From assembly GCA_963926475.1 (NCBI GenBank), contig CAWUXE010000001.1, forward strand, positions 24,820 to 88,819: a stretch of 64,000 nt of DNA, read 5' to 3'. A model generated the notes under the pieces. The model worked only from the letters and a program-made list of their open reading frames with translations, searched no databases and was not told the DNA's origin. This DNA is from an uncultured Flavobacteriales bacterium. Its GTDB lineage: Bacteria > Bacteroidota > Bacteroidia > Flavobacteriales_D > Crocinitomicaceae. This document shows positions 8,139 through 38,277 of this stretch, one piece after another. A program made the translations under genes and the position numbers. Positions within the stretch are counted from its first letter, which is position 1, and the number at the start of each line of letters is the position of its first letter.

Positions 8139-9206
8139 ATGACACCAAAATTTCATTCTTTAAAAATCAAAGAGGTAATTAAGGAAACCGAAGATTGTGT
8201 TTCAATTGCGTTTGATGTTCCAGACAACTTAAAATCTGACTATTCATACGTTTCAGGACAATATTTGACCTTGAAAGCAATGATCAATGATGAAGATATT
8301 CGTCGTTCTTATTCACTTTGCTCTTCTCCGTTCGAAAATGAATGGAAAGTGGCCGTAAAAGAAGTGGAAAAAGGAAAATTTTCTACCTATGCCAATCGTG
8401 AATTGAAGGCTGGAGACGAATTAGAGGTGATGACACCCATGGGGAATTTTCAAGTGAAGACGGAGGCTGAAAATGCAAAATCATATGCCTTGTTTGCTGC
8501 TGGATCTGGAATTACGCCTGTTCTCTCTATCATGAAAACTATTCTGAAAGAGGAACCCAATAGTGTAGTTAGCCTTTTTTATGGAAATAAAAATACAGGC
8601 AGCATCGTTTTTAGGGAAGAAATAGAATCACTTAAAAACATGCACTTGGGCGATTTACGCATCACGCACATTTTGTCTAGAGAAAGTTTGGGAAACAAGA
8701 TTCAAAAAGGAAGAATCGACGAAGAAAAATGCGCATTATTGTACGATGCTTTTTTGGCGCACGAAGGTGTTGATGAAGCTTTTCTTTGTGGACCAGAATC
8801 GATGATTTTCGCTGCGAAAAAAGCACTCGAATCGAAAAGTGTGCCATCTGAAAATATTCATTTTGAATTGTTTACCACGGAAGGTCACGAGCCATCTCCT
8901 GCATCGAAAGAAGCGGCATTGCATGATGTGGAATCAAACGTAATTGTGATTTTAGATGGTGATGAATTTCCTGTTAATCTGCAACCTGGACAAACCATTT
9001 TGGACGCCTCGCACGAAGCTGGGGCGGATTTGCCATTTGCTTGTAAAGGTGGGGTTTGTTGTACTTGTAAAGCAAAAATAATTGAAGGAAGTGCTCGTAT
9101 GGATATGAATTTTGCTCTCGACGAACAAGAAGTAGCTGACGGATTTATATTAACTTGTCAAGCTCACCCTACTAGCGATAAAATAATAGTATCATTTGAC
9201 GAATAA
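8139..9206 (+). CDS. Ferredoxin-NAD(P) reductase with C-terminal plant-type 2Fe-2S domain (PaaE/PaaK-like), paralog 1
   Basis: RRSYSLCS (FAD RxYS), GSGITP (NAD), CKGGVCCTCK...C cluster motif. 355 aa. Confidence 0.85.
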   Translation: MTPKFHSLKIKEVIKETEDCVSIAFDVPDNLKSDYSYVSGQYLTLKAMINDEDIRRSYSLCSSPFENEWKVAVKEVEKGKFSTYANRELKAGDELEVMTPMGNFQVKTEAENAKSYALFAAGSGITPVLSIMKTILKEEPNSVVSLFYGNKNTGSIVFREEIESLKNMHLGDLRITHILSRESLGNKIQKGRIDEEKCALLYDAFLAHEGVDEAFLCGPESMIFAAKKALESKSVPSENIHFELFTTEGHEPSPASKEAALHDVESNVIVILDGDEFPVNLQPGQTILDASHEAGADLPFACKGGVCCTCKAKIIEGSARMDMNFALDEQEVADGFILTCQAHPTSDKIIVSFDE

Positions 9207-9211
9207 GAATT

Positions 9212-10279
9212 ATGGGTTTATTTAGCCGAAAAAAGAAAGAAAACAAAATTCCACGCGGATTTTATACCTTAAGCATTAAAGAACTTCGCCATTTGACGGA
9301 AGATGCTGTGCAAGTTGTATTGGATATTCCTGGTGATTTAAAAGATAAATTCACCTTCATTCCAGGACAATATTTGAACTTTTCGATCACCTTAAATGGT
9401 GAAGAACATAGACGTTCTTATTCTATTTGCAGCGGAACGGGTGAAGATCTTTCGATTGGGGTAAAAGCAATTGAAAAAGGTCTTATTTCGAATTATTTCA
9501 AAAAAGACATCAAAGTAGGTGACGCTATTATGTGTAGTCGTCCAGAAGGGAATTTTAAGTTGGAGGACAAAGATCGTGATGTTGTTGCATTTGCCGGTGG
9601 AAGTGGGATTACACCTATTTTATCAATTGCAAAGAAACTGCAACAAACCGGGGGTGACATGCACTTGGTTTACGGAAATCAGACTGAAGATGCGACGATG
9701 TTCAAATCTGAAATTGATGCACTATCTAAAGTAGCAACGAATTTCTATTATCAAAATTCAGACTCAGATCACCCAAGAGTGGGACTTTTGGATAGAGAAA
9801 CTATAGATGCATACATCAAAGAGCACATCGAGATTTTAAAAGCAGATGCTTTTTTCCTTTGTGGTCCTTTGGCGATGATTGAAGGTGTTCAGGAAAAACT
9901 GGCTGAATTTGGAGTGCCAAAAGAAAAGATTAAACTTGAACTTTTTAGCGCACCGACGCCTGACGCAGTGAAACCTTCCGTTAGTGATTCCGAAGAAATT
10001 GATAGTGACGTAACAATAATTTTGGAAGGTGAATCCATTCCCATTCATTACACACCAAAAGGAAAAGGAATTTTAGATCAATTGAATTCTAAAGGTTACG
10101 ATCCACCCTACTCTTGTCGTGGCGGAGTTTGTAGCTCGTGTAAATCAAAAGTAAGAGAAGGTTCAGCGAAAATGAAATTGAATTATTCATTGACCGACGA
10201 AGAAGTGGCCGAAGGTTACATTCTATGTTGTCAAGCCATTCCAACCTCTGATAAAGTAACCATCTCATTCGATGAATAA
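9212..10279 (+). CDS. Ferredoxin-NAD(P) reductase with C-terminal 2Fe-2S domain (PaaE/PaaK-like), paralog 2
   Basis: RRSYSICS, GGSGITP, CRGGVCSSCK. Same 355-aa length and same SFDE C-terminus as the upstream gene. Confidence 0.85.
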   Translation: MGLFSRKKKENKIPRGFYTLSIKELRHLTEDAVQVVLDIPGDLKDKFTFIPGQYLNFSITLNGEEHRRSYSICSGTGEDLSIGVKAIEKGLISNYFKKDIKVGDAIMCSRPEGNFKLEDKDRDVVAFAGGSGITPILSIAKKLQQTGGDMHLVYGNQTEDATMFKSEIDALSKVATNFYYQNSDSDHPRVGLLDRETIDAYIKEHIEILKADAFFLCGPLAMIEGVQEKLAEFGVPKEKIKLELFSAPTPDAVKPSVSDSEEIDSDVTIILEGESIPIHYTPKGKGILDQLNSKGYDPPYSCRGGVCSSCKSKVREGSAKMKLNYSLTDEEVAEGYILCCQAIPTSDKVTISFDE

Positions 10280-10952: not shown

Positions 10953-11027
10953 TCCTGCGATTCACATTAGGTAGGACTCCTTTTTTCTTTTGTCGAGGGC
11001 TTTTTTTTACGTAATTTCATGGTGGTA

Positions 11028-12041
11028 ATGAAAAGTCAAATTCTATTCTTTATTCTGTTCACGTGTATTTCATTCAATAAAAATTGGGCGCAAGACATTC
11101 ATTGGTCACAGTTTCCAGACAATCCAATCTACCAAAGTCCAGGTCAAGCCGGGAATTTTAAGGGTGATTTTCGATTTATTGCCAATTATCGCGATCAATG
11201 GCGCAGCGTTACCGTTCCCTTTCAAACCTTGTCTGTTTCAGCTGATAGTAGACTTCTCACAAAAGAGCAAAAAGAAATTGGTTATGGCCTACTTGTATTT
11301 CACGATGTTGTTGGTGATGGTCAATTGCGAACACTCGAAATTCAAGGCAATGTAAATGTATTGATTCCTTTGAACAAGGATTCGAGTTTTTCTATCCGAC
11401 CTGGGATCAATTTAGGCATGAACCAACGTCGACTCAACGCGAATCAATTCTATTTTGATAATCAGTTCAATGGGATTGAGTTTGATCCTGGATTGTCCAC
11501 CAACGAGGTTTTTCAGATCGAAAGCAAAACGAATTTATCGACGGGAATAGGCACTGTTTTCGACTGGGAAATTAATTCGAAAGGGAAATTGAACTCTGGT
11601 ATTGGCTTCTACAATCTAAATCGTCCCAACCAAGGTTTTTTCGGACAGAAAATTACGCGTGATATTCGCACCAATGTTTTTGCCAACTATGAGCATCATT
11701 TGCGATCTAATTTATTTTTGAAACCATCGGCTAATATTTCGTTACAAGGAAAGTATCGTGAAGTCGTTTTGGGATCGTCGATAAAATATGTTTTAAACAA
11801 TCAGAAAGTGGTGTACAGAGCTGTGCAAGGTGGAGTTTGGTATCGATTGAAAGACGCAATGTATTTCTCGGCAGGAATGGATTATCAGAATTGGTTCTTT
11901 GGCATAAGTTATGATTTGAATTTTTCAAAACTCACACAAGCCAGTGGTGCTCGTGGAGGAATCGAATTTGCGGTTCGTTATATTTTAACTTCTGTGAAAC
12001 CTAAAAAAATAATACACCGGGTATGTCCAGATTATATCTAA
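11028..12041 (+). CDS. PorP/SprF-family type IX secretion system membrane protein
   Basis: Signal peptide, then AQDIHWSQF..NPIYQSPGQAG...YRDQWRSV..PFQT, the characteristic N-terminal pattern of the PorP/SprF family. About 335 aa beta-barrel size. Confidence 0.8.
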   Translation: MKSQILFFILFTCISFNKNWAQDIHWSQFPDNPIYQSPGQAGNFKGDFRFIANYRDQWRSVTVPFQTLSVSADSRLLTKEQKEIGYGLLVFHDVVGDGQLRTLEIQGNVNVLIPLNKDSSFSIRPGINLGMNQRRLNANQFYFDNQFNGIEFDPGLSTNEVFQIESKTNLSTGIGTVFDWEINSKGKLNSGIGFYNLNRPNQGFFGQKITRDIRTNVFANYEHHLRSNLFLKPSANISLQGKYREVVLGSSIKYVLNNQKVVYRAVQGGVWYRLKDAMYFSAGMDYQNWFFGISYDLNFSKLTQASGARGGIEFAVRYILTSVKPKKIIHRVCPDYI

Positions 12042-14260
12042 TCCTTTTCTTGGTTTTTGGGTGCGCGACGAATAGTTTCGGCCAATCGGAATTGAGCAAA
12101 TACCTCAAGTACGCGGAAGAACAATTTCAAAAAGGCGATTATTATTATTCCCTCGATTATTACCAAAAAGCGATGGCGATTGACTCCAATTCTGTCGATA
12201 TTCTTTGGAATTACGCTGAAACGCTTCGTGCGTATAAGGATTATAAAAAAGCCGAATATTATTACGAGAAAGTCTATAAACGGGAAGAAACGTTGATTCA
12301 TCCAGCAAGTTTGCTCCAATTGGGATTGATGCAAAAGCAGAACGGAAAATATGAGGAGGCGTTAGAAACTTTCAAAAAATCCAAAAAGAAATACGCAAAA
12401 GACAAAAAAGGATATTTCTATCAAAAGTCGAGACGCGAAATCGAGAGCTGCTTGTGGGCAAAAGAACAATTTGAAGGGAAATATCCTATCGCTCCTTTGG
12501 CAAGCACAGTGAACTCAGAAGATGCGGAATTTGGCCACATGGTGCTCAATGGGAAATTAATTTTCTCTTCTCTTAAGGCAGATTCTATTTCAAGTAATGA
12601 GGAAGTCTATTCAAAGATTTATCGAACCTTGCTTTATCAGCAAGACTTGACAAATACAGGAAATGAAAAGCCAGAGTTGATTGAAAGTTTGTATTTCGAT
12701 AATATGAGTGCTGGAAACGGCGTTTTCTCACTCGATAGCTCACGCTACTATTTCAGTTTGTGCTCGGATGATGGCCACAACTACCGTTGTAAAATAATGG
12801 TTACGCAATACCGAAACGGAAAATGGTTTGGTGCCGATTCTCTTGGATCTATCATTAATGAATCGGGCAGCAACACAACCATGCCTGCCATTTCCGATTG
12901 GGATGGAAAGGAAATTTTGATTTTTGCCAGCGATAGAGATGGAACCGAAGGAGGTTTGGATTTGTGGTATTCTGAAATAAAAAACGGCAATCAATACGGG
13001 AAAGTCAGAAACATAAAATCGCTCAATTCTCTCGACAATGAAACTTCACCTTGGTGGGATAAGCAAACCAAAACTTTGTATTTTTCCAGTTCTTGGTACG
13101 ACGGAATGGGTGGTTTGGACATTTTTTCATCGCAATACGACGAGAAACTAGGTGAACCTGTCAATTTGGGACTCCCGTACAACAGTCCAGCGAATGATTT
13201 GTATTTCTTTATCGATGCGAATAATCACTATTTAACAAGCAATCGTTTGGGTGTAAATTATAGCAAAAACCCAACGTGCTGCAGCGATATTTTCAAGATT
13301 GAGTTCCCGGAAATAAAACCGCCTATCACCAAAGAAGAAACATTGGCCGAACTCAGTAAGCGACTTCCGGTGACGCTTTATTTCCACAACGATGTGCCTA
13401 ATCCACGGAGTACATTGCCAACTTCAGAAGTGAACTATATCAATAGCTACAACGATTATAGAGAGATGTTGTACAAATACCAAAACGAATATTCAAGCGG
13501 ACTGACAGGCGAAAAATCGGATGATGCAAAAGAGGACATCGAAAGTTTCTTTGTAGAATACGTCGATCAAGGTGTCAAGGATTTGAATCAATTCCGAGAT
13601 GTATTATTCGATGTGCTTTCAAAAGGCGCGAAAATCAACTTAACGATTAAAGGATTTGCCTCTCCACTCGCTAAAAGTGATTACAATGTCAACCTTACAA
13701 AAAGAAGAATCGTCTCTCTCATCAATTATTTGAACGCATATGAGGGTGGTGTTTTTAAAGAATACATTTCTCAAAAAGCTACCAATGGTGGGAAATTAAC
13801 CTTCACTGAAGTTCCATTTGGAGAATACACGGCAAATACTTTGGTGAGTGACAATTTAAATGATCAAAAAAACTCGGTGTATTCTCGGGCGGCTGGACTT
13901 GAACGGAAAATAGAAATTCAAAGTGTTCAGTTTATAAAAGACAGTATTGTCGATTTACCGATGACCGCAAATGAAAACATAAGAGACATTGGCATCATTG
14001 CTAAAAACAAAAAAGTGGAAATTTCTTATACGGTCACCAATACAAATGATCATTCTATTGAATTACTCCCTCCTCGTTCGCCCTGCGATTGCAGTGTGGT
14101 AGAATTAGAGAAATCTAAATTATTGCCTGGTGAATCTACTGTTGTAAAAGTGGTTTTTGACCCTACCAATTATGATGGAAAGGTGGTGAAGTCCGTCTAT
14201 TTAAAATCCAAAAATAGCGAAGAAGAAATTCGTCTAGTTTTGACAGGAACAATACAATAA
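12023..14260 (+). CDS. Multidomain envelope protein: TPR repeats, TolB-like beta-propeller repeats, OmpA-like domain, C-terminal DUF1573-like domain
   Basis: Signal peptide. TPR-like YYYSLDYYQKAMAID. Propeller-like FASDRDGTEGGLDLWYSE. OmpA-like KGFASPLAKSDYNVNLTKRRIVSLINYL. C-terminal PCDCSVVE...LPGESTVVKVVFDP. Confidence 0.7.
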   Translation: MSRLYLILFLVFGCATNSFGQSELSKYLKYAEEQFQKGDYYYSLDYYQKAMAIDSNSVDILWNYAETLRAYKDYKKAEYYYEKVYKREETLIHPASLLQLGLMQKQNGKYEEALETFKKSKKKYAKDKKGYFYQKSRREIESCLWAKEQFEGKYPIAPLASTVNSEDAEFGHMVLNGKLIFSSLKADSISSNEEVYSKIYRTLLYQQDLTNTGNEKPELIESLYFDNMSAGNGVFSLDSSRYYFSLCSDDGHNYRCKIMVTQYRNGKWFGADSLGSIINESGSNTTMPAISDWDGKEILIFASDRDGTEGGLDLWYSEIKNGNQYGKVRNIKSLNSLDNETSPWWDKQTKTLYFSSSWYDGMGGLDIFSSQYDEKLGEPVNLGLPYNSPANDLYFFIDANNHYLTSNRLGVNYSKNPTCCSDIFKIEFPEIKPPITKEETLAELSKRLPVTLYFHNDVPNPRSTLPTSEVNYINSYNDYREMLYKYQNEYSSGLTGEKSDDAKEDIESFFVEYVDQGVKDLNQFRDVLFDVLSKGAKINLTIKGFASPLAKSDYNVNLTKRRIVSLINYLNAYEGGVFKEYISQKATNGGKLTFTEVPFGEYTANTLVSDNLNDQKNSVYSRAAGLERKIEIQSVQFIKDSIVDLPMTANENIRDIGIIAKNKKVEISYTVTNTNDHSIELLPPRSPCDCSVVELEKSKLLPGESTVVKVVFDPTNYDGKVVKSVYLKSKNSEEEIRLVLTGTIQ

Positions 14261-16587: not shown

Positions 16588-16983
16588 TCATACCTGAATA
16601 GCTCGAATGCTTGAGGCAATATCTTCGAGTTCAACAGAGGTCAAAGATAATTTCTCCTGCTGGAAATTCATATCCGCTACTGAATTTATTGGAATTAGGT
16701 GAATATGCGCATGCAAAACCTCCAATCCAACGACGGCAACACCAACTTTAGTGCAAGGACAAGCCCCTTTAATTTTCTTCGCTACAGTTTTTGCGAATAC
16801 CATCATTTCACCTAGGCTGTTATCGTCCATATCGAAAACATAATCTACTTCGTTTTTTGGGATTACTAAAACATGCCCTTTACGCAGTGGAAATACATCT
16901 AGAAATGCAAGATGATTATCATCTTCATGCACTTTATGCGATGGAATCTCGCCAGAAACTATTTTTGAAAAGATGGTGCTCAT
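16588..16983 (-). CDS. HIT-family (histidine triad) nucleotide-binding protein
   Basis: HAHIHLIP histidine-triad motif. 131 aa. 4-nt overlap with greA. Confidence 0.9.
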   Translation of the reverse strand: MSTIFSKIVSGEIPSHKVHEDDNHLAFLDVFPLRKGHVLVIPKNEVDYVFDMDDNSLGEMMVFAKTVAKKIKGACPCTKVGVAVVGLEVLHAHIHLIPINSVADMNFQQEKLSLTSVELEDIASSIRAIQV

Positions 16984-17456
16984 CCTCTTGAAATTTCCAT
17001 TATTTCAAACTGAATGATTCCATTTGGCGTTTCCACATCTGCCAGGTCGCCTTTCGACTTCCCTAATAATCCTTTTCCAATTGGTGAATCAACTGAAATC
17101 TTCTTGGCTTTGAGATCTGCTTCATTTTCAGCCACAAGTGTGTATTCCATTTCCATATCGTTCTTGATGTTTTTAATCTTCACTTTAGATAGAATAAAAA
17201 CTCTCGAATTATCAATATTCGATTCATCGATTAGACGTGCATTGCCAAGAACGACTTCCAATTTTGAAATCTTCATCTCTAATAAACCTTGTGCTTCTTT
17301 TGCGGCATCATATTCTGCATTCTCGGACAAATCACCTTTGTCACGGGCCTCCCCTATTTGGGCGCTTATTGAAGGTCTTTGCACAGTTTTCATATCGTGC
17401 AATTCATTTTTTAATTTTTGAAGTCCTTCAGCTGTATAATAAGAAATTTGAGACAT
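16980..17456 (-). CDS. greA: Transcription elongation factor GreA
   Basis: N-terminal coiled coil with DLSENAEYDAAKEAQ, 158 aa, typical GreA length. Confidence 0.95.
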   Translation of the reverse strand: MSQISYYTAEGLQKLKNELHDMKTVQRPSISAQIGEARDKGDLSENAEYDAAKEAQGLLEMKISKLEVVLGNARLIDESNIDNSRVFILSKVKIKNIKNDMEMEYTLVAENEADLKAKKISVDSPIGKGLLGKSKGDLADVETPNGIIQFEIMEISRG

Positions 17457-17489
17457 ATCGCTTCTTTTTTCGTATTGTTATTAAATGCA

Positions 17490-17518
17490 AACAAGAGAGC
17501 CTTAAGAGCTCTCTTGTT
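17490..17518 (-). terminator. Stem-loop downstream of the PorV-like gene
   Basis: aacaagagagc / gctctcttgtt 11-bp perfect stem with a 7-nt loop. Only a partial T-tract follows on the minus strand. Confidence 0.55.
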
Positions 17519-17542
17519 CAACAAAGATACTAAACGTTTCTT

Positions 17543-18619
17543 TTATTTCAAGTCTATTGTAATACCAAAAGTGTGAACAATTCCAAAAACTCCAGCAAAT
17601 CGAGAGCTATACTCAACTCCTAAAGCTGTTTGATTTTTTCCTACTAATGCATCAACTGAAAATCCAGCTGTTGGTCCAACCATAGCATTTGATCTATTTT
17701 CTGCGGAGAATAAATTTTTCTCATAAACGAATCCAGCTCTTAAATTAAAAGCGAACTTGTCTAAATTCATTCCATAATTTGCTCCTAAGCGAAACTGGTC
17801 ATAGAAAAATGAGTTGGCTGTATAACCAAAGGCTATAATCAACTTACTCTTTTCATCTAAATTAAAGTCATAAGAACCACCAATCGCCAGTAACGATGGT
17901 AACTCATACGCCTGAATTCTTTGGTCTAATGATGTTAAAGCCGACGTTTCATTGTTGTTGGCTTGAAGTGTAAATCCATCGCCTTTATACTTGATTGTCG
18001 GTCCTACATTTTTCAAAGTGATTCCAAATTTCATTTGGTCTTGCTCACCTGTCACATATTGTATACCTGCGTCTAATGCTACTCCATTTCCTCTTACATT
18101 GAAAATACTCTCAGAAAGTACCTTCAAGTTTATTCCAGCATATATGGAACTAGAGAAAGCCTTGGCATAACCAACGTTAACAATATTCGTTCGGGGAGAA
18201 AATGTACCAATTCCACCTTCTGGAATATTTACTGTCGTAACATCAATATCTCCGTAGTTCATGGATTGAACACTTACTGTAAGAACTCCGTCATCTGAAA
18301 TTCGTTGAGCAATACCAGCAGAATAAAATTGTATACCTGCACTACCCATCCAATTTGCGGTGTTGAACTTCAATTGAGTTTTATCAGTAAAAGCCAATCC
18401 TGCGATGTTCAAGTAAGAAGCTTCCAAACCTTTAGCATTTGCAATATTTGCATCACCTAAAGCAGAACTTCTTGCCCATGGATTAACTAAAAGCATACTA
18501 GCTCCACTTGAGCCTACACGATCTTCGTTTCCCGCCGAGGCGAATAATCCGATCATCATGGCCGAGACAAACAAACTTCTTTTCATATTTATGATTGAAT
18601 TTTTCATTTTCTTCTGCAT
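17543..18619 (-). CDS. PorV-like outer-membrane beta-barrel (T9SS PorV/LptO family)
   Basis: Signal peptide, then GASMLLVNPWARSSALGDANIA...NIAGLAF, matching the PorV N-terminal pattern. C-terminal aromatic-rich barrel end. Start uncertain (18619, 18607 or 18586). Confidence 0.7.
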   Translation of the reverse strand: MQKKMKNSIINMKRSLFVSAMMIGLFASAGNEDRVGSSGASMLLVNPWARSSALGDANIANAKGLEASYLNIAGLAFTDKTQLKFNTANWMGSAGIQFYSAGIAQRISDDGVLTVSVQSMNYGDIDVTTVNIPEGGIGTFSPRTNIVNVGYAKAFSSSIYAGINLKVLSESIFNVRGNGVALDAGIQYVTGEQDQMKFGITLKNVGPTIKYKGDGFTLQANNNETSALTSLDQRIQAYELPSLLAIGGSYDFNLDEKSKLIIAFGYTANSFFYDQFRLGANYGMNLDKFAFNLRAGFVYEKNLFSAENRSNAMVGPTAGFSVDALVGKNQTALGVEYSSRFAGVFGIVHTFGITIDLK

Positions 18620-18626
18620 TTCTAAA

Positions 18627-21600
18627 TTATATTCCTTGTAAGTCGACTTGTCTAATTCCACCGAAGAACTTCAAGACCGTTTCACCGATTCCTGGTACAT
18701 CAACATGAATTAGATAAATCCCGCTTGCAATTGGTATACCTATGTTATTGTTCAAATCCCAATCGAGGCTCGTTACCGGGCTATCTTTCTTGAATGACTT
18801 AACTAATTTACCATTGGTTGAATAAATATTAACATTACAAACATCAGGTAAATTCGTGATCTTCACTCTCGTATCCAAACGACCTGTTTCATATTCAGAG
18901 AATGCATAGTAAGGATTCGGAACAACGTTGATCATTTTAAGAACATCTGTAAGTTCTTCATCACGACCTGTTTTCGTTGACAATTCACCCATATCCCAAG
19001 AATACATTGGTTTACCATCATTCTTGTTAGATGCTACAAATGATTTGTATTCTTTGTTTACTCGAATTCGAATTCGAACGGGTGTTTCAATTTTAAACGC
19101 AGCTCTATCTGCAGCCATTAATGGGTAACCAATCCAACTCAAACTTGAGTAGAACTGTGTTTTTGCAGTACCACTTCCTGATTCTACTGATTCCATTAGG
19201 GCAACAACGTCATTGATGTCATTTGTAGCTCCGCTATACGCACTCATATCAAAACCTCCACTCAACAAATTGTTGATTGTATTTTGTTTGTGACTGAATA
19301 CATAAATTGGTTGCATACCTCCAATTTTAGGATTTCCTACTTGGTCGAATCTTCTTGGGCTTGGATTCCAAATCATATCCGTTCCACCATCACTACCTAG
19401 GAAAGAATTTTCTCCAAAGGCCATGTGCAAACGAGCACCAGTTTCTAGATCGATAGCATATCCGGGGAACCAACTTTGTCCTGTACTTCCCGCTATAATA
19501 TTACCATTGATGTCTTTACTAGCACTTTTACGCATTGCACCTGGTTTAGCGTCATTAACATTCAATGATGCATCACGACCTAATTCAAGAACGATACATT
19601 TGGTCCATTTCTCTTTATCATTGGTAATAACAATATCAATACTTGGAGAAAATGCAAGACCCGCATTTATTCTACCACCACCATTATATGATTCCGGACC
19701 TCCAGGATAAACTGGAGTAGGTCTATAGTAAGCGAGCGGCATAAAGTCACACTGATACCCAACCAATCGGTGCGGAGCCATTAGACCCTCAGCAATCCTT
19801 GTCCATCTTCTGTCTGGATCTTTACCCACTTCATCTTTGTAACAAGCAAGGCTGTTATACGTAGGAACATTAGGAGTTGGAAATTCAGATTCATCCACAA
19901 TTCCAGATCGAATCCAATTGCGTGGAGAAAAATCATCCGCATCAGACACATAGGTCAACCACCTTTTAGACGAATCTTTAAATAGTATTTCACTCTCTAG
20001 TATGGTTGTTGTTTCTGCCGTATTATTTCCTGTTTCATCCTTCTCTTTAAAATAAGGAGTTTGCGAAATTTGCACTGACACACCCCATTGTGGTATTAAT
20101 TGTTCGTTATCAATACTAATTGCCTTTTCGGATGAAATTGTCTCTAAAAGGTTTCCCCCTTTTGTATCATATCTATTGATCACCCATGAAGCCGTATCTG
20201 CTGCATTTGAATTTGACGGACTAGGAACAAAATCTGTGAATTTGATTTCAAAATAACCATCAACCAAATTTAATGGATCAACTACCTTGATATTAATTGG
20301 ACCTTTATTTTGCTGGTACTCAGGCTCAGCCATAAATCCTTGGTCCAAAATTCTGGATTCAGTAGAAGAAGTAAATTCTAAAACTCTACCGCCATTTCCA
20401 TGACCATCCAATCTTGTGATTTTTGGCGTCATACCGTAATCAGCTAATTGAGATGTTCCACCTAATTCTGGTCTCGGGTTGTGAGGCACTGCAGCAACGG
20501 CCTTAATACCTGTTTTATCAAAACTCAAACGAGAAGCGATATATGGTAATTTTTGACCATCCAATTTCGCTGGATCATTCGGATCATATTCTTTGAACAG
20601 ATTGTGTGCATAAGCAATCGCAATATAATAATACGTTTTGTGATTCACCAAAGCTTTATCTCCAATAGCAAATTGGTCTTCTTTCACCACAAAACTATGT
20701 TTGATACCTGTATTTGAACCATTCACTTTTTCAACTGGTGTAGCAAAACCAAGAGCTTCATCATATTCGAAATTTACTAAACGATCAATTGGTAATCCAG
20801 TTAAATCATTTCCAGCTGCATCTTTTTCAAAGTTCTTGATATCACACTGCGCTACCAAACGAGCTTTCGTTTCATCAGCGATATCAGATACACCTGCAGA
20901 AGAATTCAACATTTGGAATATTTGATATCCCTCAAATCTGTAGAATCTATCAACACCATCTATAACGATGTTCACTTTGTCTTCTTGTATATATTCTTCT
21001 TCGTAATTGTTCGATCCCAAAGGATTATCTAGCGTAAGAATAATTTCATTTTCCAATTCTTGAATTTTTAATCTCGGCGCGTCTGGCGGGCTAAGAATTT
21101 GGAAACATGCATCAAACAATGCTTGCGCTTTTGTATCAGCAGCTTTCATAGCGGTAATTGAACTAGCAACCCCGGCATTTCCTCTACCGTATACAATTCC
21201 AACCGTAATATTGTTTACTGCCCCTGGCTTCAAGGTAAATGGTCCAGCTGCTTGAACAAAACGACGGTCACCTGGTCCGTTTACAGCTGAATTTTCAACC
21301 CAACTTGCTCCACCTGGATCAATTCCACCTGTTCCCCAATTTAATGGATCTGAATCTCCTGGGAAAACGTAATCTGTTTCTGTTGTTGTCGTTCCAGTAG
21401 CAAAACCGTCACCTCCATAGAAAATCTCATTTCCATTTGCCCATTTACCCTCCATATAATTGTAGTACTGAGGAGCACTTGATGGATCTGAAACTGCAGC
21501 AGCCGCTCCATTTGTAAAATAGGTAAATCGACGCATTCCGAAACGTTCGTTATCGATCAATCCATCTGAGTAACCTGTACCAATTCCTCGGTAAACAATA

Positions 21601-22880
21601 CCATTACTATCTATGGCATTTAAAATTGGAGGAGCAATATAAAATCCTGTATTCGAATCCAAAACTGGACCTGGATTATCAAATCCGTCCGCATCCAAGT
21701 ATGGTCCTTCAAAAAAGTCAACTCCAATAGCAGGAGGATTTGCTCCATATCCAGTTGCTCCACCGGATGTTGCATCCACTTCCAATCCATTATAACAGAA
21801 ACCTAGTCCTCTAGAGACATCACAACCAACATAATCATCAGAATAGTTTCCTAAATCTGGATCTAGCCATTTGGCAAAGTAAGTATCAAACAAAGTTTGT
21901 GTTCCCCTATTGATCAACTCGTAGTTATAGAATGTCATACGGTTAACTTCATCATTCGTAGCAAAACTAAACGCCTGTGCACGAATTTCCATACCGATTG
22001 GATCACCACCTGTTTCCGTGTGAATGTTTCCTTTATCATTGAATACCCACCAGTGTGTTTCATCACCAAAAAGAGTTACTCTTCTATCGATTCCGCATTT
22101 AACATCGTCATTTCCTAAAATATCATCATACCAAGGATAATCTCCTTGCGCCATTGGGTCATATGCTCCATCAGCTCCAGCGATTGGACTTTCATTATCA
22201 TAAAAAGGTGCTAAATAAAAATCTTGTCCTAAGCCTACGTCACCGTGAGCTGGCCAGTTCATAATTCTATTTAATACCTCGTTTGATGGTGAAGGAACTG
22301 GCTCCGTTGTAATTCCATTTGTGAAATCCCACCAGTTTTTAAAGTTGATCACCTCACCTTTACGTATGGTGAAAAATTTATCATATGCCACACATTGATC
22401 TGGTTGAATATCAGCAGGACCGAAATCTCTGACTGTATTATCACCTGAAGGTTGAGCTGGATCGTAATTTCCAGTTCCTGCATTCACTGTCAAAGGACCT
22501 GACCAAAAATCATTTCCTAATTGACGGAATCGAACAGCGGCCAGCTTCAATTGTCCATTGGCATCAACTCCACCCATCCATAATGAACCGGCAAAAATCG
22601 CTTTCAATCCACTTCCTTTTGGAATTTCATAACCAGCAACCCCACCACTTGCAGGATTTTGGAATAAACGTCCACCTTGCTGCAAGAATGCGCTTACATC
22701 ATTGAAACTCATCATTAAAGACTGAGAGGACGGCACACAATTCGCAGCTTTATTAGCGATTGAAGACGGCGACGTCTTTTTACCTGAGGTTTTGTCTCTT
22801 ACATCTTCTATTGCAAAACTCGCATTGCTGGCTAAAAAAGCCAATGCAATTAGCAAAGATTTAATTGAAACATTTTTCAT
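18627..22880 (-). CDS. Very large (1417 aa) secreted protein of unknown function with T9SS/FlgD-Ig-like C-terminal domain
   Basis: Signal peptide MKNVSIKSLLIALAFLASNASFA. C-terminus VVPNPYYAF...VNIYSTNGKLVKSF...ASGIYLIHVDV resembles a type-A CTD. No recognisable catalytic motif. Confidence 0.7.
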   Translation of the reverse strand: MKNVSIKSLLIALAFLASNASFAIEDVRDKTSGKKTSPSSIANKAANCVPSSQSLMMSFNDVSAFLQQGGRLFQNPASGGVAGYEIPKGSGLKAIFAGSLWMGGVDANGQLKLAAVRFRQLGNDFWSGPLTVNAGTGNYDPAQPSGDNTVRDFGPADIQPDQCVAYDKFFTIRKGEVINFKNWWDFTNGITTEPVPSPSNEVLNRIMNWPAHGDVGLGQDFYLAPFYDNESPIAGADGAYDPMAQGDYPWYDDILGNDDVKCGIDRRVTLFGDETHWWVFNDKGNIHTETGGDPIGMEIRAQAFSFATNDEVNRMTFYNYELINRGTQTLFDTYFAKWLDPDLGNYSDDYVGCDVSRGLGFCYNGLEVDATSGGATGYGANPPAIGVDFFEGPYLDADGFDNPGPVLDSNTGFYIAPPILNAIDSNGIVYRGIGTGYSDGLIDNERFGMRRFTYFTNGAAAAVSDPSSAPQYYNYMEGKWANGNEIFYGGDGFATGTTTTETDYVFPGDSDPLNWGTGGIDPGGASWVENSAVNGPGDRRFVQAAGPFTLKPGAVNNITVGIVYGRGNAGVASSITAMKAADTKAQALFDACFQILSPPDAPRLKIQELENEIILTLDNPLGSNNYEEEYIQEDKVNIVIDGVDRFYRFEGYQIFQMLNSSAGVSDIADETKARLVAQCDIKNFEKDAAGNDLTGLPIDRLVNFEYDEALGFATPVEKVNGSNTGIKHSFVVKEDQFAIGDKALVNHKTYYYIAIAYAHNLFKEYDPNDPAKLDGQKLPYIASRLSFDKTGIKAVAAVPHNPRPELGGTSQLADYGMTPKITRLDGHGNGGRVLEFTSSTESRILDQGFMAEPEYQQNKGPINIKVVDPLNLVDGYFEIKFTDFVPSPSNSNAADTASWVINRYDTKGGNLLETISSEKAISIDNEQLIPQWGVSVQISQTPYFKEKDETGNNTAETTTILESEILFKDSSKRWLTYVSDADDFSPRNWIRSGIVDESEFPTPNVPTYNSLACYKDEVGKDPDRRWTRIAEGLMAPHRLVGYQCDFMPLAYYRPTPVYPGGPESYNGGGRINAGLAFSPSIDIVITNDKEKWTKCIVLELGRDASLNVNDAKPGAMRKSASKDINGNIIAGSTGQSWFPGYAIDLETGARLHMAFGENSFLGSDGGTDMIWNPSPRRFDQVGNPKIGGMQPIYVFSHKQNTINNLLSGGFDMSAYSGATNDINDVVALMESVESGSGTAKTQFYSSLSWIGYPLMAADRAAFKIETPVRIRIRVNKEYKSFVASNKNDGKPMYSWDMGELSTKTGRDEELTDVLKMINVVPNPYYAFSEYETGRLDTRVKITNLPDVCNVNIYSTNGKLVKSFKKDSPVTSLDWDLNNNIGIPIASGIYLIHVDVPGIGETVLKFFGGIRQVDLQGI

Positions 22881-22900
22881 ATTCTTTATTCTTAAATTAA

Positions 22901-25900
22901 TTAAAAGTCAAATTTCACACCTAATCTTATTGTTCTCGGAACAGAAATGTTACCTGCATTCTGAACTTTTATCGTGTAGTAGTCTCTAAACGATTGTTCA
23001 TCTGTTTGATTCTGAATAGAAGCTTGACTAGCCGCAGCCGCAAGATATCCATCATCATCCCAGTTTCCAGTTGCACGGTAAACACTCAAACGGTTGAACT
23101 GATTCAACAAGTTTGTTGCTCTTACATATACATTCAAGAAAACAGCTTTTTTCTTTCCTTCTTCTTTACCCATCTTCAAATTGAAGGTTCTATCCAACTG
23201 CATATCCAATCTATACGACCATGGCAAACGAGATCCGTTTGTCGTTCCATCCAATCCTGAATATTGAGGTGAGAACTGAACAGCGTTCGTAATAAACGTT
23301 TGTGCCGAATAAGGAGCTCCAGAATAAATATTTGAGAAAATATTCAATCCTGTATTTTCGAATAAATTGAATCCTTTAACGATTGGACCGTTGTAATCTT
23401 TTCCTTCACCATATCGATAATCAACCGTTACCGCAAAAGCATGCCGTTGGTCAAAGCTGTATGGGAAAATCGCTCTTAAGTTAGGAACACCGGCATTAAT
23501 TAATCCTGTTGCAGAAGTTGCATTTGAACCTGTACCATCTGCAAATTGCAATGTGTAGTTGGCAGTGATACGAACATTACCTGTTCTTCTTAAGTCATAA
23601 GCTATCGTCATTCCTTTTACTGTTCCAAAATCACGGTTACCGAATGAACGATAAGTAACAGGGTAGGCACCATTATAGCTTAAGATTTGCACGTTATCTC
23701 TTTGTTCACGATAAAAGGCAGATATTTTCAAAGAAGACGTTTTCGACAATACTTGTTGGAATCCAATCTCGTAATCGATCGTTTTCTCAGGTCTCAAGTT
23801 CGGGTTATCTAAAATTGTATTACGTGTCTCTAAGAATTGGTAATCGTAAGGATTAAAACGTGCATTTGACGTAGGACGTTTCGTCAAGATATCATAGTGA
23901 GCAAAGAAAGATGATTCGTCAGACACAGGGAAAGAGAATGCGATTCTTGGCATTACGTTGAATTGCGGTTTGTAGTCACTAAATGCGCTCGCTTTTGGTG
24001 TTTGTTGATTTGCATCAATTAACCATGGAGCAATTCCATTTGCTGCTTCGATAGTGGCAGGGCCATTAACCTCGGTACCATTTGCATCGTAAAACTGTTG
24101 TCCATTTCTAAAACCATTAATTGCAGTTGGATTAGCAACGTCATTTACATATACAGTATAATCATCACCCATAGAACCAGGAATGTTTACCCACCCATAA
24201 GTGCTTGGATTCGATGATGCAAGTTGTTTTGCTTGTTGAACATTATTAGCTTCATACAATAAATAAGGATCTTTCAAAACAGGCTGATTGGCATCGAATC
24301 TATCTACACGTACACCAACATTAAATACTAAATCTTTGAAAGCAAATTTATCCATCACATATCCTGATATATAAATAGGCTGGAAAGCACCTACAAATCT
24401 TTCGTAATTTCCGTTATCATCAAATTTATTAAAGTAGTCGTTTATGTTTGTTCTTCCACTGACTTTGTTTCCAATATGGTCGTATCCATAATAAGATATA
24501 AATGAATTTCCTGAATTCAACAATTCATCAGGTGAGAACATGTCCAATTGGAAAATCTCCGGATTGTATTGATCAATATCGACAAAGTCATTTCCAGCTG
24601 GATTCAATCCTAATTTTTGACGTAAGCTATAATCAAAGAAAGCTTGATTATCTAGAATTGCGTTTCCATTAAAGTCCTGCAATCCACCTTGACCTCCGTA
24701 ACTTCCAGAACCAGATGTGCTAGCATAACCTGTATTCAATCTGTCATATGTAATTGACTTGAATGATCCTGAATCACGAACAACACCACTATTCAAATCT
24801 AACTCACGAATATGGAAGTTTGCCAATTGACGAGCAACTTGCCAGATACCAATCGGTCCTGCATCACCACTGCCCCATCCTCGGTCCCAACGTTGTTCGA
24901 ACTCAAACCCTAATGATAATGAGTGATCGCCAATGTTTGCAGAGCCAGAACCAGTAACACGGAATTGATCATTTTCTGATTTTCCAAATGCGTTATATGG
25001 CGTACCAATATTGTTCCAAATACTGTACACACTTCCTGGAGCGTCACCATTTCTCAAAGCATTACCAGCGGCGATTTGTGTCAAATTTGAATAATTTCCT
25101 TCTGGATTGTCCGCGTATATATCGTAGTACTGCGAAGTAATTGCCGCAAGAGAAGAGTTTAAAACTGACGGGGTAAAATCTACTACCACATCTCTAAATC
25201 CATCATGATCATATCTCTGCAATGAATCGTTGAATGAATAAGAAGGTCGTCTTGTAGTAGTAAATGTTCCTACGTGACCATAATTAAAGATATTGTATTC
25301 GTGATTTGAATCGAAAAAATTCTGTTTTGATTTGGAATAATCAACCATCAAGGAATAGAATGCACTTTTAATTTTTGAAGCATTACCTTCTTCACCACTG
25401 TTGGAGAAACGTTGTGTCAATCGACCAAAGACTCTCCAGTCTAAACTTCTAACGTCTCCGTAATTTTCAAAATTCATTAATGAACCTGCATAACTTGTTG
25501 CTTTAGAATTGTTCAAGTTTAATGAACCTCCAAAAGTTAAATTGACACTTGGTCCAGTATTTACATCAATTTTTCCTTGAGCAGACAAAACACCATTTGC
25601 AGCGTTCATTCTTGTTTTTGTTTGTTCGAAATCACTGTTTCTTAAAAACAATGCATTGTGAAATGTTCCTTGTCCAGAAGCCGTAGGACGAATTGGGTTC
25701 GCCAATAAATCTTCACGCGCTTCTTTCGTAATTCTCCACTGTCCTCCATTTGCATATGGACGCGGATCTTGTTGTCTTGTATAATTGGCAGAAATCAAAA
25801 ATCCTAAACGCGGTTTTGTTTTCTTTCCAGTTGAATCTTTTTGCATCCAAAGTGGACCGGACAACATTCCTTCCACCAGATTGTAAGCATATGAATCAAG

Positions 25901-26692
25901 ACCATACGCCTTACCATCATATCCAACTGAATCTTTTCCTTTCAAGTAAATTCCAGAAGATACGGCTTCAATACTTCCGAAGTACACTGAACTCGGTCCT
26001 CTTGTCGTTACCGAAATAATACCTCCAGTTGCATCACCATAATTTGCAGGTAAACCACCTGTAATTACTGTTACCTCCTCAATTGCTGACTTGGGAAGAT
26101 TTGACGAACCTCGCACTTTAATACCGTCTATATAATAGAATGTACCATCTTCACGAGAACCACGAACACTAATTCCTCCGCCTTCTTGTGAATTTACACC
26201 TCCTACTGTTGACGCAACTCCAGCTGCTGAACGAACCGGCAACCTAGCGATATCTTCACGAGTAACCGTTGCTCCCGAAGCTCCACCATCTTTATCAATC
26301 AATGGAACGCGATAAGCGATTACTTGAACTTCAGCTAAATCAACTACATCTTTTGCTTTTGATAAGGCGATATTATCTAAGAATGTGATTTTTTCAGATG
26401 AAATAATAACTCCCGTTTGAGAAATTGATTTAAATCCTTCTGTTTCATTCTTAATTAATACGTCGTATGAACCAGCCGCAACTGAATTAATTTGAAATTT
26501 TCCATCAAAATCTGTGTTTGCCCCTGCTTTTACACTACCATTTAAGGTAAGGAGGACTTTACAAAATGGAATCGGTTCCTTCGTATCGGCATCGATGACT
26601 GAACCCTTCAGCGACCCTAGCCCGACCTGCGCGTATGCAGAAGTCACTGTAACTAAGAAGCTTACAAGAAGTATGGTAATATTCCGTAACAT
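22901..26692 (-). CDS. Oversized (1263 aa) TonB-dependent-receptor-like outer-membrane barrel with CarboxypepD_reg-like and plug domains
   Basis: Signal peptide. N-terminal GSVIDADTKEPIPFCKV...DGKFQI. Plug-like ISVRGSREDGTFYYIDGIKV...LPANYGDATGGIISVTT. Terminal ...RLGVKFDF. Confidence 0.8.
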   Translation of the reverse strand: MLRNITILLVSFLVTVTSAYAQVGLGSLKGSVIDADTKEPIPFCKVLLTLNGSVKAGANTDFDGKFQINSVAAGSYDVLIKNETEGFKSISQTGVIISSEKITFLDNIALSKAKDVVDLAEVQVIAYRVPLIDKDGGASGATVTREDIARLPVRSAAGVASTVGGVNSQEGGGISVRGSREDGTFYYIDGIKVRGSSNLPKSAIEEVTVITGGLPANYGDATGGIISVTTRGPSSVYFGSIEAVSSGIYLKGKDSVGYDGKAYGLDSYAYNLVEGMLSGPLWMQKDSTGKKTKPRLGFLISANYTRQQDPRPYANGGQWRITKEAREDLLANPIRPTASGQGTFHNALFLRNSDFEQTKTRMNAANGVLSAQGKIDVNTGPSVNLTFGGSLNLNNSKATSYAGSLMNFENYGDVRSLDWRVFGRLTQRFSNSGEEGNASKIKSAFYSLMVDYSKSKQNFFDSNHEYNIFNYGHVGTFTTTRRPSYSFNDSLQRYDHDGFRDVVVDFTPSVLNSSLAAITSQYYDIYADNPEGNYSNLTQIAAGNALRNGDAPGSVYSIWNNIGTPYNAFGKSENDQFRVTGSGSANIGDHSLSLGFEFEQRWDRGWGSGDAGPIGIWQVARQLANFHIRELDLNSGVVRDSGSFKSITYDRLNTGYASTSGSGSYGGQGGLQDFNGNAILDNQAFFDYSLRQKLGLNPAGNDFVDIDQYNPEIFQLDMFSPDELLNSGNSFISYYGYDHIGNKVSGRTNINDYFNKFDDNGNYERFVGAFQPIYISGYVMDKFAFKDLVFNVGVRVDRFDANQPVLKDPYLLYEANNVQQAKQLASSNPSTYGWVNIPGSMGDDYTVYVNDVANPTAINGFRNGQQFYDANGTEVNGPATIEAANGIAPWLIDANQQTPKASAFSDYKPQFNVMPRIAFSFPVSDESSFFAHYDILTKRPTSNARFNPYDYQFLETRNTILDNPNLRPEKTIDYEIGFQQVLSKTSSLKISAFYREQRDNVQILSYNGAYPVTYRSFGNRDFGTVKGMTIAYDLRRTGNVRITANYTLQFADGTGSNATSATGLINAGVPNLRAIFPYSFDQRHAFAVTVDYRYGEGKDYNGPIVKGFNLFENTGLNIFSNIYSGAPYSAQTFITNAVQFSPQYSGLDGTTNGSRLPWSYRLDMQLDRTFNLKMGKEEGKKKAVFLNVYVRATNLLNQFNRLSVYRATGNWDDDGYLAAAASQASIQNQTDEQSFRDYYTIKVQNAGNISVPRTIRLGVKFDF

Positions 26693-26926
26693 ATATACTT
26701 ATTATTAGTTTTAACTTTTTTTGTACAAGAAGTCGTAAATATAGATAAATTATGGTTTTCTAATGGGTCCCAAATTAATATTTAATATGATTTCTTCACA
26801 TTATTTTAACAAAAATAGAAATCCAAAGGCAGAATCAACCTATGATTAATTTCAATTTTGATCACATTTATACAAGTCTACTTCGATTTCAATGCTCATT
26901 TAATTCCTTACTTTTGTTCCAGACAT

Positions 26927-30933: not shown

Positions 30934-30983
30934 TTCCTATACAAATTGGTGAAAACTTTTAGGAACGCCGAGCGTCTCACTTT

Positions 30984-31062
30984 TTCCCTTCGGCAGCATT
31001 ATCCGCATCAGGTCATGAGGGTATTTCTCAGAATGACGTGAAATTGTCAGACACCCCTAAAA
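30984..31062 (-). promoter_or_regulatory. TPP (THI-box) riboswitch aptamer controlling thiE-thiG-thiH
   Basis: Minus strand reads aggggtgtc...ctgagaaataccct.atgacctgatgcggataatgctgccgaaggga, matching the TPP riboswitch core. Confidence 0.85.
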
Positions 31063-31122
31063 GTTTTGGTAAAGATAGCGAATAAAAAATTCTATTCTTT
31101 ATCATATTTAAAATGAATTTGC

Positions 31123-31195: not shown

Positions 31196-31204
31196 ACTCT
31201 GACT

Positions 31205-31270
31205 TTAGGGGTGTCCGCGGACTGAGAAATACCCTTCGAACTTGAATCGGCTGACACCGACGGAAGGAAA
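31205..31270 (+). promoter_or_regulatory. TPP (THI-box) riboswitch aptamer controlling thiS-thiC-thiE-like-thiD
   Basis: ttaggggtgtccgcggactgagaaatacccttcgaacttgaatcggctgacaccgacggaaggaaa contains the ggggtg..ctgaga..accc..ga.c.tga core. Confidence 0.8.
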
Positions 31271-31316
31271 AGCGTTAGACCAATTTGGTTTTCCCCTGAA
31301 GCATATTTTAAATGAA

Positions 31317-35604: not shown

Positions 35605-36126
35605 CTACTCAATTACTAAAGGATAATCCTCCACTTCTCCATAAGAATCATTCTCAAAACAAGGGTCACTGCTTATCGTACTTCCTGCTCTTACAATGAA
35701 TCTGGCATAATATTCCCCTTTAACTGCATTAGAAGGAACCGTTATAGACTTCGTCACACTAGTAAAGTTGATGTTACTAGAAATCAATACACTTTCATCC
35801 GAATCTAAAAAGTCACCATCTCCATTCCAATCAAAATAAGCATAGATACCAACAGCTGGACTTGTAGTTTGAAAGTTAACTTGCAGATCATAGGCCTGTC
35901 CTTTTTTAACTTTGATAATCTTGTCTTTATAAAAATTATTTGGACCTGTTCCAAAGGTGTTATTGGTCATACCTGCCATTGAAACTTGACTGAAAAAATC
36001 CTCACTTGAATTATAAAATGTTATAACGCAAGGTAATTTTTTAACATTCCATGTAAAGTCATCTTTTGTACAGCTGAACAAAATTAAACTAGATAGAAAT
36101 GTGATATTACGAGTCATTGAATTCAT
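35605..36126 (-). CDS. Lipoprotein with C-terminal GEVED domain, function unknown
   Basis: Lipobox-like LILFSC signal and the literal C-terminal motif YGEVEDY. Confidence 0.6.
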   Translation of the reverse strand: MNSMTRNITFLSSLILFSCTKDDFTWNVKKLPCVITFYNSSEDFFSQVSMAGMTNNTFGTGPNNFYKDKIIKVKKGQAYDLQVNFQTTSPAVGIYAYFDWNGDGDFLDSDESVLISSNINFTSVTKSITVPSNAVKGEYYARFIVRAGSTISSDPCFENDSYGEVEDYPLVIE

Positions 36127-36128
36127 AA

Positions 36129-37664: not shown

Positions 37665-37844
37665 AACTATTTTAATAAATGTTGTCACCAAAATAACAAA
37701 AAATTCAATGCTAAATAAATTCTATTCTAAACTTTCATGCATAAATAATGATTTCTTAAAATAGTTTGATATTTAAGAATGATTTGAATGTTGAATATCT
37801 ACAAACACTTTTCTCGATATAAGCCCAGCAAGCTTTGGCCACTT

Positions 37845-37878
37845 GCGTTTTCGATAATTTCTTCAATCATAGAGCAAA
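37845..37878. repeat. 34-bp direct repeat, copy B (orphan copy of the nadC 5' end)
   Basis: Identical to 35565-35598. Read on the minus strand it opens a 23-codon ORF, MIEEIIENASGQSLLGLYREKCL*, sharing only the first 8 residues (plus 2 nt of the ninth, Ala, codon) with NadC. Confidence 0.95.
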
Positions 37879-37893
37879 GATAAAAATCTGACT

Positions 37894-38277
37894 CTAATTT
37901 TCTATGTTCAAGGTCTCGATAAGATATTTGCCGTTGACCTTTTTGAAGTGGAAGGTTACTCTGAAAACATTACCATTAACGGTGTAATTACCAATTGAAA
38001 AAGCGCTTGCCCCTTCTTTCCCAGGATGGATAATCTCGAATTTACCTTTGGGATATTTGGTAAAAAAATCTTTTAGGATCAATTTCGCTTGCGACTTCGA
38101 ATAGGCACCATCTTTACCGAGAACCGTCATCAAAACCTTTTCATTCATCAGGCTTTCTATTGCTCCAGCATCACTAGCTTTAAAGGCTTTCTCAATTTCG
38201 GCATGCGGCAAACTGGAAATTCCAGAGATGCTCAAGATTGCGGTCGCAATGAAAATATATAGGTAACTCATGATCAA
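37894..38277 (-). CDS. Small secreted protein, DUF4783-like
   Basis: Signal peptide and about 125-aa size. The pattern AFKASDAGAIESLM...LILKDFF resembles DUF4783, as I recall it next to nadC in Bacteroidota. Confidence 0.5.
   Translation of the reverse strand: MIMSYLYIFIATAILSISGISSLPHAEIEKAFKASDAGAIESLMNEKVLMTVLGKDGAYSKSQAKLILKDFFTKYPKGKFEIIHPGKEGASAFSIGNYTVNGNVFRVTFHFKKVNGKYLIETLNIEN

Follow-up and report, generated by a model that had tools for sequence, protein, structure and literature searches.

The window analyzed here, a 64,000-nucleotide (nt) stretch of DNA from an uncultured member of the Flavobacteriales (overall GC content ~38%), contains three adjacent genes, referred to below as g1, g2, and g3 and together as the triad, which encode a TonB-dependent-receptor-like barrel, a giant secreted protein, and a barrel of the PorV/PorQ family, respectively. 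We propose that g2 is exported by the T9SS (type IX secretion system), is tethered through an uncleaved C-terminal domain (CTD) to g3, and works with the TonB-gated g1, a reading to which we assign a probability of roughly 0.4. The observations that carry it are the domain identities of the three proteins, the conservation of their gene order, and the type and conservation of the g2 CTD. Each part of the triad belongs to a known superfamily; what is novel is the fixed combination, the dedication of a PorV-family barrel to a type-A-like CTD, and a g2 family for which there is no model.

An earlier reading of this DNA, made from the sequence only, had recognized a T9SS sorting domain at the end of g2. 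Such a domain is present, and it is weak in the window protein, which scores 20.9 bits against TIGR04183 (cut-off 23) and 13.6 bits against PF18962 (cut-off 27). Among 23 members of the g2 family, 15 match TIGR04183 at E ≤ 0.01, while 17 match the C-terminus of PorZ and 5 that of PorU. The last ~100 residues of the window protein match the PorZ model NF052228 (30.5 bits, cut-off 260), and neither this model nor that of PorU (NF033707) is matched over its full length, the similarity being confined to the C-terminus. When the g2 family profile was compared with the PDB, the sole matches were the CTDs of PorZ (5m11) and PorU (6za2). The protein identical to g2 is named by NCBI a ‘T9SS type A sorting domain-containing protein’, as are many of its relatives. 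Furthermore, the CTD is the best-conserved segment of g2, with a mean pairwise identity of 0.51 compared to 0.22–0.50 elsewhere, and its last strand is followed by a tail with the family consensus LKWFGxxRPxDLxxF. Across 46 complete triads, identity is 0.61 for the g2 CTD, 0.49 for the g2 body, and 0.64 for GreA, the product of a neighboring gene. PorZ and PorU are themselves the two T9SS proteins known to retain their CTDs, which are bound by PorQ and PorV, respectively, and it has been proposed in a review that cognate PorV-like barrels shield such CTDs against cleavage (PMC10202324). The similarities described above suggest that the g2 CTD belongs to this retained kind and may likewise stay in place, and thus a permanent tether is favored over a transient shuttle. 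For effectors, the prevailing view is that the general PorV serves every type-A CTD and that only type-B CTDs have barrels dedicated to them (PMC12618676). A T9SS cargo of the ordinary type-A kind is also encoded in the window (953–3325, minus strand): an M14 carboxypeptidase that has an InhA-like MAM domain and carries a canonical Por_Secre_tail (42.8 bits). BLAST gave no alignment between its CTD and that of g2.

The putative partner of this CTD, g3, matches the PorV/PorQ family model NF033709 over its full length (135.7 bits, cut-off 90), in keeping with the PorV-like identity first read from its sequence. Its scores against the equivalog models of this family are far below the cut-offs: 78 bits for PorQ (NF033711, cut-off 220), which is the best equivalog match, 63.4 bits for PorV (NF033710, cut-off 250), and 39.2 bits for PorV2 (NF052325, cut-off 325). 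The only PDB match of g3 is Flavobacterium johnsoniae PorV (6h3i_F, E = 4e-6). Membership in the family at scores so far under the PorV, PorQ, and PorV2 cut-offs places g3 in a separate subfamily and argues that it is not the general shuttle. The possibility that g3 is simply the canonical PorV is also not borne out by its surroundings, as neither porU nor a gene for a full-scoring PorV, PorQ, or PorZ was found in the window or its 10-kb extensions on the 155-kb ENA contig. In a published survey, Fluviicola taffensis appears in the trees of PorU, PorV, PorQ, and PorZ, an indirect suggestion that the canonical parts exist in the family (PMC7323717). Apparent matches to ‘PorV2’ in the literature proved to be artefacts of superscript references. 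A further barrel of the T9SS type is encoded elsewhere in the window, which thus holds a PorP/SprF protein beside a canonical type-A cargo: at 11019–14260 (plus strand), a PorP/SprF-family gene (340 residues) is followed by an overlapping gene for a 745-residue TPR and DUF1573 protein, and this pair is kept near the triad in the Crocinitomicaceae loci L001 and L083.

The third component, g1, has the CarboxypepD_reg-like N-terminus, plug, and terminal Phe that had been read from its sequence, as both domains score above their Pfam cut-offs (Table 1) and the protein ends in KFDF. In 43 orthologues, the TonB-box-like site between the two domains has the consensus VEVVxY, followed by VPLIDKDGG; the window motif EVQVIAY may act as a TonB box, and g1 may be TonB dependent. 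The g1 family profile matches the plug of Cir (E = 1e-12) and those of PirA/PfeA (1e-7) in the PDB, as well as structures of isolated N-terminal extensions, namely 9hfj, titled ‘SusC homolog’, and 6ytc, titled ‘TonB-dependent receptor’. A barrel domain of the TonB_dep_Rec type had also been anticipated. The corresponding Pfam model, PF00593, is passed by three of seven distant orthologues and by the orthologue in locus L084, but it does not match window g1, for which there are just weak C-terminal matches in NCBIfam. No match to the SusC/RagA model TIGR04056 was obtained for g1 at E ≤ 0.01. Because the alignment available for structure prediction was shallow (62–74% identity), the AlphaFold model of g1 is poor, with a predicted local distance difference test score (pLDDT) of 48, and it was used to assign the superfamily only; DSSP reports 22–24 long strands in it, an unreliable count, and g1 has putative loop insertions of ~165 and ~110 residues. 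Even so, the top 50 Foldseek matches of this low-confidence model are all TonB-dependent transporters (E = 4e-12 to 7e-9) and include Bacteroides thetaiotaomicron XusA complexed with XusB, a surface lipoprotein. On the strength of its plug sequence, g1 is a member of the TonB-dependent-receptor superfamily, and it has ~3000 relatives.

The body of g2 belongs to no known family. The protein has a visible signal peptide but no lipobox and no SusD domain, so the statement of the sequence-only reading that it is not a SusD-like lipoprotein is correct. Neither the window protein nor any of 22 diverse relatives has a Pfam or NCBIfam match in the body, and searches of the PDB by sequence or by family profile returned no relative of it. 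The AlphaFold model of residues 30–1229 is confident (pLDDT 86.8, pTM 0.76) and mostly beta, and a Foldseek search with it found no usable homologue (TM scores ≤ 0.21 in the PDB and ≤ 0.11 in BFVD), the matches being generic beta-sandwich and FN3-like domains only. Assignment of g2 as a glycoside hydrolase or lyase was rejected, as the matches are restricted to sandwich domains, helices are nearly absent from g2, and Pfam and profile scans detected no catalytic family. A role as an S-layer protein was rejected as unlikely because g2 is conserved across orders (~49%) about as much as g1 and g3. The family is large, with relatives in 7180 clusters at 50% identity (E ≤ 1e-3), of which 1774 remain at E ≤ 1e-30; most clusters are full-length (1300–1500 residues), and word-index searches returned >5600 and >6400 proteins. 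Nearly all relatives of g1 and g2 come from metagenome-assembled genomes, and the only names that they carry are ‘T9SS type A sorting domain-containing protein’, ‘TonB-dependent receptor’, ‘carboxypeptidase regulatory-like domain-containing protein’, and ‘hypothetical’.

The conservation of the triad was examined in a scan that used one genome per species and yielded at least 580 relatives, with gene order mapped by phmmer in the best 80 loci. The three genes keep their order and strand in about 58 of these 80, and most of the others end at contig edges. Carriers include the Crocinitomicaceae, the Cryomorphaceae, other Flavobacteriales, the Lentimicrobiaceae, and uncultured Bacteroidales, together with one contig labelled KSB1. 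The one cultured genome among these loci, that of Crocinitomix catalasitica ATCC 23190, has the full triad, and C. algicola is named as the source of a further g1 orthologue. The order survives between orders whose proteins share ~40% identity and whose other flanking genes differ, which supports the earlier suggestion that the triad is a real unit. This unit does not end at g3, however, as the conserved block reaches on to greA, which is the next gene downstream, in the same orientation, in 51 of the 58 complete triads, including those of Bacteroidales and Lentimicrobiaceae (clustered flanking open reading frames); loci L001 and L084 also have it, and in both of these, as in the window, greA is followed by a HIT gene. 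The resulting arrangement of triad, greA, and often HIT is an unusually deep synteny of outer-membrane genes with a transcription elongation factor across Bacteroidota orders. No conserved regulator, inner-membrane transporter, or catabolic gene was found near the 58 complete triads, and no regulator or glycan-degrading gene was found nearby.

Copies of g2 also occur outside the triad. In about ten loci g2 stands alone among unrelated neighbors, which include a superoxide dismutase gene, a gene for a RecB-like helicase, and dapA; three others have a tandem second g2 right behind g3. The lone copies arise at several positions in the tree, indicating repeated duplication, and g1 and g3 were never duplicated along with them in the loci examined. 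The triad had been described as self-contained; this description does not hold, since g2 would require the general T9SS for export.

Close spacing of the genes, all of which lie head to tail on the minus strand, had been noted previously and is correct. The gap between g1 and g2 is 20 nt, and that between g2 and g3 is 7 nt or 19 nt, depending on which of the two likeliest start codons of g3 (ATG 18619 or ATG 18607) is used. The mechanical open reading frame of g3, 17543–18661, begins at GTG 18661 and would overlap g2 by 35 nt. The AT-rich region upstream of g1 is likewise as described, its GC content being well below that of the window (Table 1). It contains a Bacteroidota -7-like motif, TATTTTTG, at 26817..26810 on the minus strand. 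The count of such motifs (TAnnTTTG) in the window equals chance expectation, and a sigma-70 scan upstream of g1 performed no better than on shuffled sequence; consequently, the promoter of the triad is only presumed. The hairpin reported downstream of g3 is real and slightly longer than first described (11 bp, 17490–17518), and none of 200 shuffles folds as stably. Its absence from the terminator-scan output is explained by the lack of a T-run, and it is likely to be a terminator or attenuator of the operon. A second -7-like motif, TATCTTTG, lies at 17529..17522, directly ahead of this hairpin. Gaps of 7–20 nt, a single AT-rich region upstream, and a single hairpin downstream together indicate that g1, g2, and g3 are co-transcribed.

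Table 1. Positions in the window of the triad, its domains, and adjoining features.
Feature	Position	Strand	Description
g1	22901..26692	-	1263-residue TonB-dependent-receptor-like outer-membrane protein; signal peptide, CarboxypepD_reg, TonB-box-like motif, plug, large barrel ending in Phe
g1 CarboxypepD_reg domain	26366..26614	-	SusC-type N-terminal extension, residues 27–109; PF13620, 39.8 bits, above the Pfam cut-off
g1 TonB-box-like motif	26312..26332	-	EVQVIAY, residues 121–127; from the sequence and the consensus of 43 orthologues
g1 plug domain	26018..26278	-	Residues 139–225; PF07715, 38.5 bits, cut-off 23.9
g2	18627..22880	-	1417-residue secreted protein; Sec signal peptide, ~1280–1300-residue beta-rich body, C-terminal T9SS type-A-like domain
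g2 CTD	18630..18950	-	Residues 1311–1417; divergent type-A T9SS CTD with a conserved ~10-residue tail
g3	17543..18619	-	358-residue PorV/PorQ-family outer-membrane barrel, non-canonical subfamily
AT-rich intergenic region	26693..26926	-	Presumed promoter; 234 nt upstream of g1, common to a divergent PPTase gene; GC content 24.4%
Hairpin between g3 and greA	17489..17519	-	13-bp stem; -22.6 kcal/mol, z = -4.05 (RNA fold)
greA	16980..17456	-	Pfam GreA_GreB_N and GreA_GreB; directly downstream of the triad
HIT-family gene	16588-16983	-	Next gene after greA

Based on these features, a model can be proposed for how the three proteins might work together. First, g2 would cross via Sec and then via the general T9SS, directed by its type-A-like CTD. 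Next, this CTD would escape cleavage by PorU and dock permanently on g3, acting as a dedicated barrel of the PorV/PorQ family, in the way that PorZ docks on PorQ and PorU on PorV. Docking would set the beta-rich g2 body (~150 kDa) on the outside of the cell, next to g1 or above it, with g1 envisaged as a TonB-energized, plug-gated barrel with a SusC-type N-terminal extension. Finally, g2 may serve g1 as a ligand-capturing surface partner or lid in transport, a role held elsewhere by SusD, BtuG, and XusB, although its anchor would be a protein-protein contact (CTD to PorV-like barrel) rather than a lipid.

Evidence from sequence divergence is consistent with coupling of the three proteins. Among the distance matrices for g1, g3, and the g2 body, the correlations are 0.90–0.92, and with the matrix for GreA they are 0.65–0.72; these are correlations of the mirror-tree kind that carry no significance test and in which longer proteins yield cleaner distances. 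After controlling for GreA and the g2 body, the partial correlation of the g2 CTD is 0.32 with g3 and 0.15 with g1, and this co-variation of the CTD and g3 is suggestive of coupling. The limits of this mirror-tree comparison weigh against the tethering model, as do several other points. The CTD of window g2 falls below the curated type-A cut-offs, the size and loop architecture of the g1 barrel are uncertain in a model of such low pLDDT, and the contact among the three proteins that the model calls for is predicted. Lone g2 paralogues occur with neither g1 nor g3 adjacent, and in locus L010 g1 and g2 are followed by a superoxide dismutase gene in place of g3; linkage of the three genes is thus strong but not absolute. 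It is possible that L010 is a chimeric join of a triad with the locus of a g2 paralogue linked to superoxide dismutase. Additionally, there is no conserved inner-membrane transporter, regulator, or catabolic neighbor that points to a substrate.

The closest known counterparts of g2 and g3 are the PorZ-PorQ and PorU-PorV pairs of Porphyromonas gingivalis, in which a surface protein keeps its CTD on a 14-strand barrel of the PorV/PorQ family, as g2 may do on g3. Similar to these pairs, g2 has a CTD whose best matches are those of PorZ and PorU, and g3 belongs to the same barrel family. The order of porU and porV is mirrored by g2 followed by g3. This likeness is the starting point of the main rival to the tethering model, namely that g2 and g3 form a lineage-specific accessory to, or replacement for, the T9SS surface-attachment machinery, comparable to PorZ-PorQ or PorU-PorV, while g1 would be an outer-membrane conduit or platform associated with them, so that the role of the triad would lie in envelope or surface biogenesis instead of nutrient uptake. 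A locus that is vertically conserved, free of regulators, and tied to the housekeeping genes greA and HIT across orders, with proteins nearly as conserved as GreA, is what such a role would lead one to expect, and the best equivalog match of g3 is to PorQ. However, the g2 body is unrelated to the beta-propellers of PorZ and the peptidase of PorU, showing no likeness in sequence or structure to either protein although both structures were in the searched PDB library, and g3 lies far under the PorV and PorQ equivalog cut-offs. The placement of Fluviicola taffensis noted above suggests that the family has the canonical parts. Furthermore, g2 and g3 share their operon with a plug-gated TonB-type barrel, which is not part of the attachment complexes and has no known role in them. 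We consider this explanation unlikely, though likelier than the other rivals.

Less likely than an attachment role is the explanation that g2 is an ordinary T9SS cargo with a cleaved CTD, for example an adhesin or a protein that binds or degrades glycans, for which g3 serves as a transient dedicated shuttle while g1 is a separate transporter of g2 products or ligands. The precedent is the pairing of type-B cargo with PorP/SprF shuttles, as in SprB-SprF of Flavobacterium johnsoniae, where the genes for cargo and dedicated barrel adjoin as those of g2 and g3 do. That cargo and cognate shuttle are encoded as gene pairs is established for type-B CTDs, and the PorP/SprF barrel is thought to decide the final location of the cargo (PMC12618676). 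In contrast to that system, the CTD of the triad is type-A-like and its barrel is of the PorV/PorQ family rather than PorP/SprF. Lone g2 paralogues that lack a g3 of their own would fit a cleaved cargo, and parts of g2 show a weak Foldseek likeness to beta-sandwiches of glycoside hydrolases, phosphorylases, and lyases (E ~1e-3 to 1e-2, TM scores 0.1–0.2), although no catalytic family was found in g2. A CTD that is better conserved than the body and followed by a conserved extra tail would be unexpected for a signal that is discarded, and the CTD of g2 resembles retained CTDs rather than that of the M14 peptidase described above, which is of the canonical cleaved kind. It is very improbable, finally, that the adjacency is only inherited synteny of three functionally uncoupled outer-membrane genes: greA and HIT are likewise conserved beside the triad without an obvious link to it in function, and show that deep synteny alone is no proof of function, but the signs of co-transcription, the order held between orders while other flanks vary, the known functional pairing of CTD proteins with this barrel family, and the tighter correlation of the three proteins with one another than with GreA all speak against it.

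The tethering model also invites comparison with TonB-dependent transporters that work with a surface partner. In SusC/SusD, BtuB-BtuG, and XusA-XusB, as in the triad, the gene for a transporter with an N-terminal extension, a TonB box (in g1 a TonB-box-like motif), and a plug is followed directly by that for a surface partner, which in the triad is a putative one, and the g1 model matches such transporters, XusA among them. In contrast to these systems, g2 has no lipobox, is not SusD-like, and is predicted to be a 1417-residue beta-rich T9SS substrate; the triad has a third gene for a PorV-like anchor; g1 does not match SusC/RagA; and the triad has no regulator or glycan-degrading genes nearby. 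A different resemblance is to BamG-BamH of the Bacteroidota β-barrel assembly machinery (BAM), in which a 14-strand FadL/PorV-like barrel holds a large surface protein near a bigger barrel (PMC12578637, PMC12611786). BamH is a lipoprotein rather than a T9SS substrate, however, and the big barrel is BamA, which is not plug-gated or of the TonB type; the likeness is one of architecture. The BAM accessory proteins BamG/H/M/P were rejected as the identity of the triad because both the proteins and their context differ, and pep25/lbp26 of Flavobacterium collinsii were checked as a counterpart and found to be unrelated. Full-text literature searches returned no description of the triad or a matching characterized system, in agreement with the earlier reading, which knew of no described function for it, and no curated family covers the g2 body.

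Several features of the window outside the triad can be recorded. Two back-to-back thiamine pyrophosphate (TPP) riboswitches, at 30968–31068 (minus strand, 59.6 bits) and 31197–31285 (plus strand, 65.2 bits), both above the gathering score, face divergent thiamine operons; the plus-strand operon has thiC, and the minus-strand one has thiG together with a radical-SAM/BATS gene. At 8139–10279 (plus strand) there are two tandem 355-residue paralogues with the domain order FAD_binding_6, NAD_binding_1, and 2Fe-2S ferredoxin, followed by a short-chain dehydrogenase. A 520-residue open reading frame with no Pfam match (36129–37691, minus strand) lies inside the stretch of lowest GC content (36001–38000, 31.9%).

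In the triad, a fixed operon, two hallmark systems of the Bacteroidota meet: TonB-dependent uptake machines of the cell surface and the T9SS. Its conserved, regulator-free, greA-linked context and the high conservation of its proteins argue for a core rather than a niche-specific function, and suggest that it serves housekeeping rather than the acquisition of a niche-specific nutrient. We advance only tentatively the broader conclusion that the triad is an unrecognized outer-membrane machine of the Bacteroidota, made up of a TonB-powered gated barrel and a T9SS-delivered giant subunit that a retained type-A-like CTD tethers permanently to a private PorV-family barrel. If this is true, the general PorV would not serve every type-A CTD, contrary to the current rule, the body of g2 would represent a new fold family, and a core envelope or uptake function would be present in the Crocinitomicaceae, the Cryomorphaceae, and many uncultured Bacteroidales. 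If the tether of the CTD to g3 is real, it would be a third way to fix a partner on a TonB-dependent transporter, beside lipid anchors and the anionic lipopolysaccharide (A-LPS) anchor, and the idea that a cognate barrel protects a CTD would extend from T9SS components to an effector-type protein. Crocinitomix catalasitica ATCC 23190 is available as a cultured carrier for experiments on these questions. With >7000 clusters at 50% identity, no model in Pfam or NCBIfam, and no structure solved for any relative, g2 represents a very large family in which even a description of the domains would provide annotation for thousands of Bacteroidota proteins from freshwater, marine, and gut settings.

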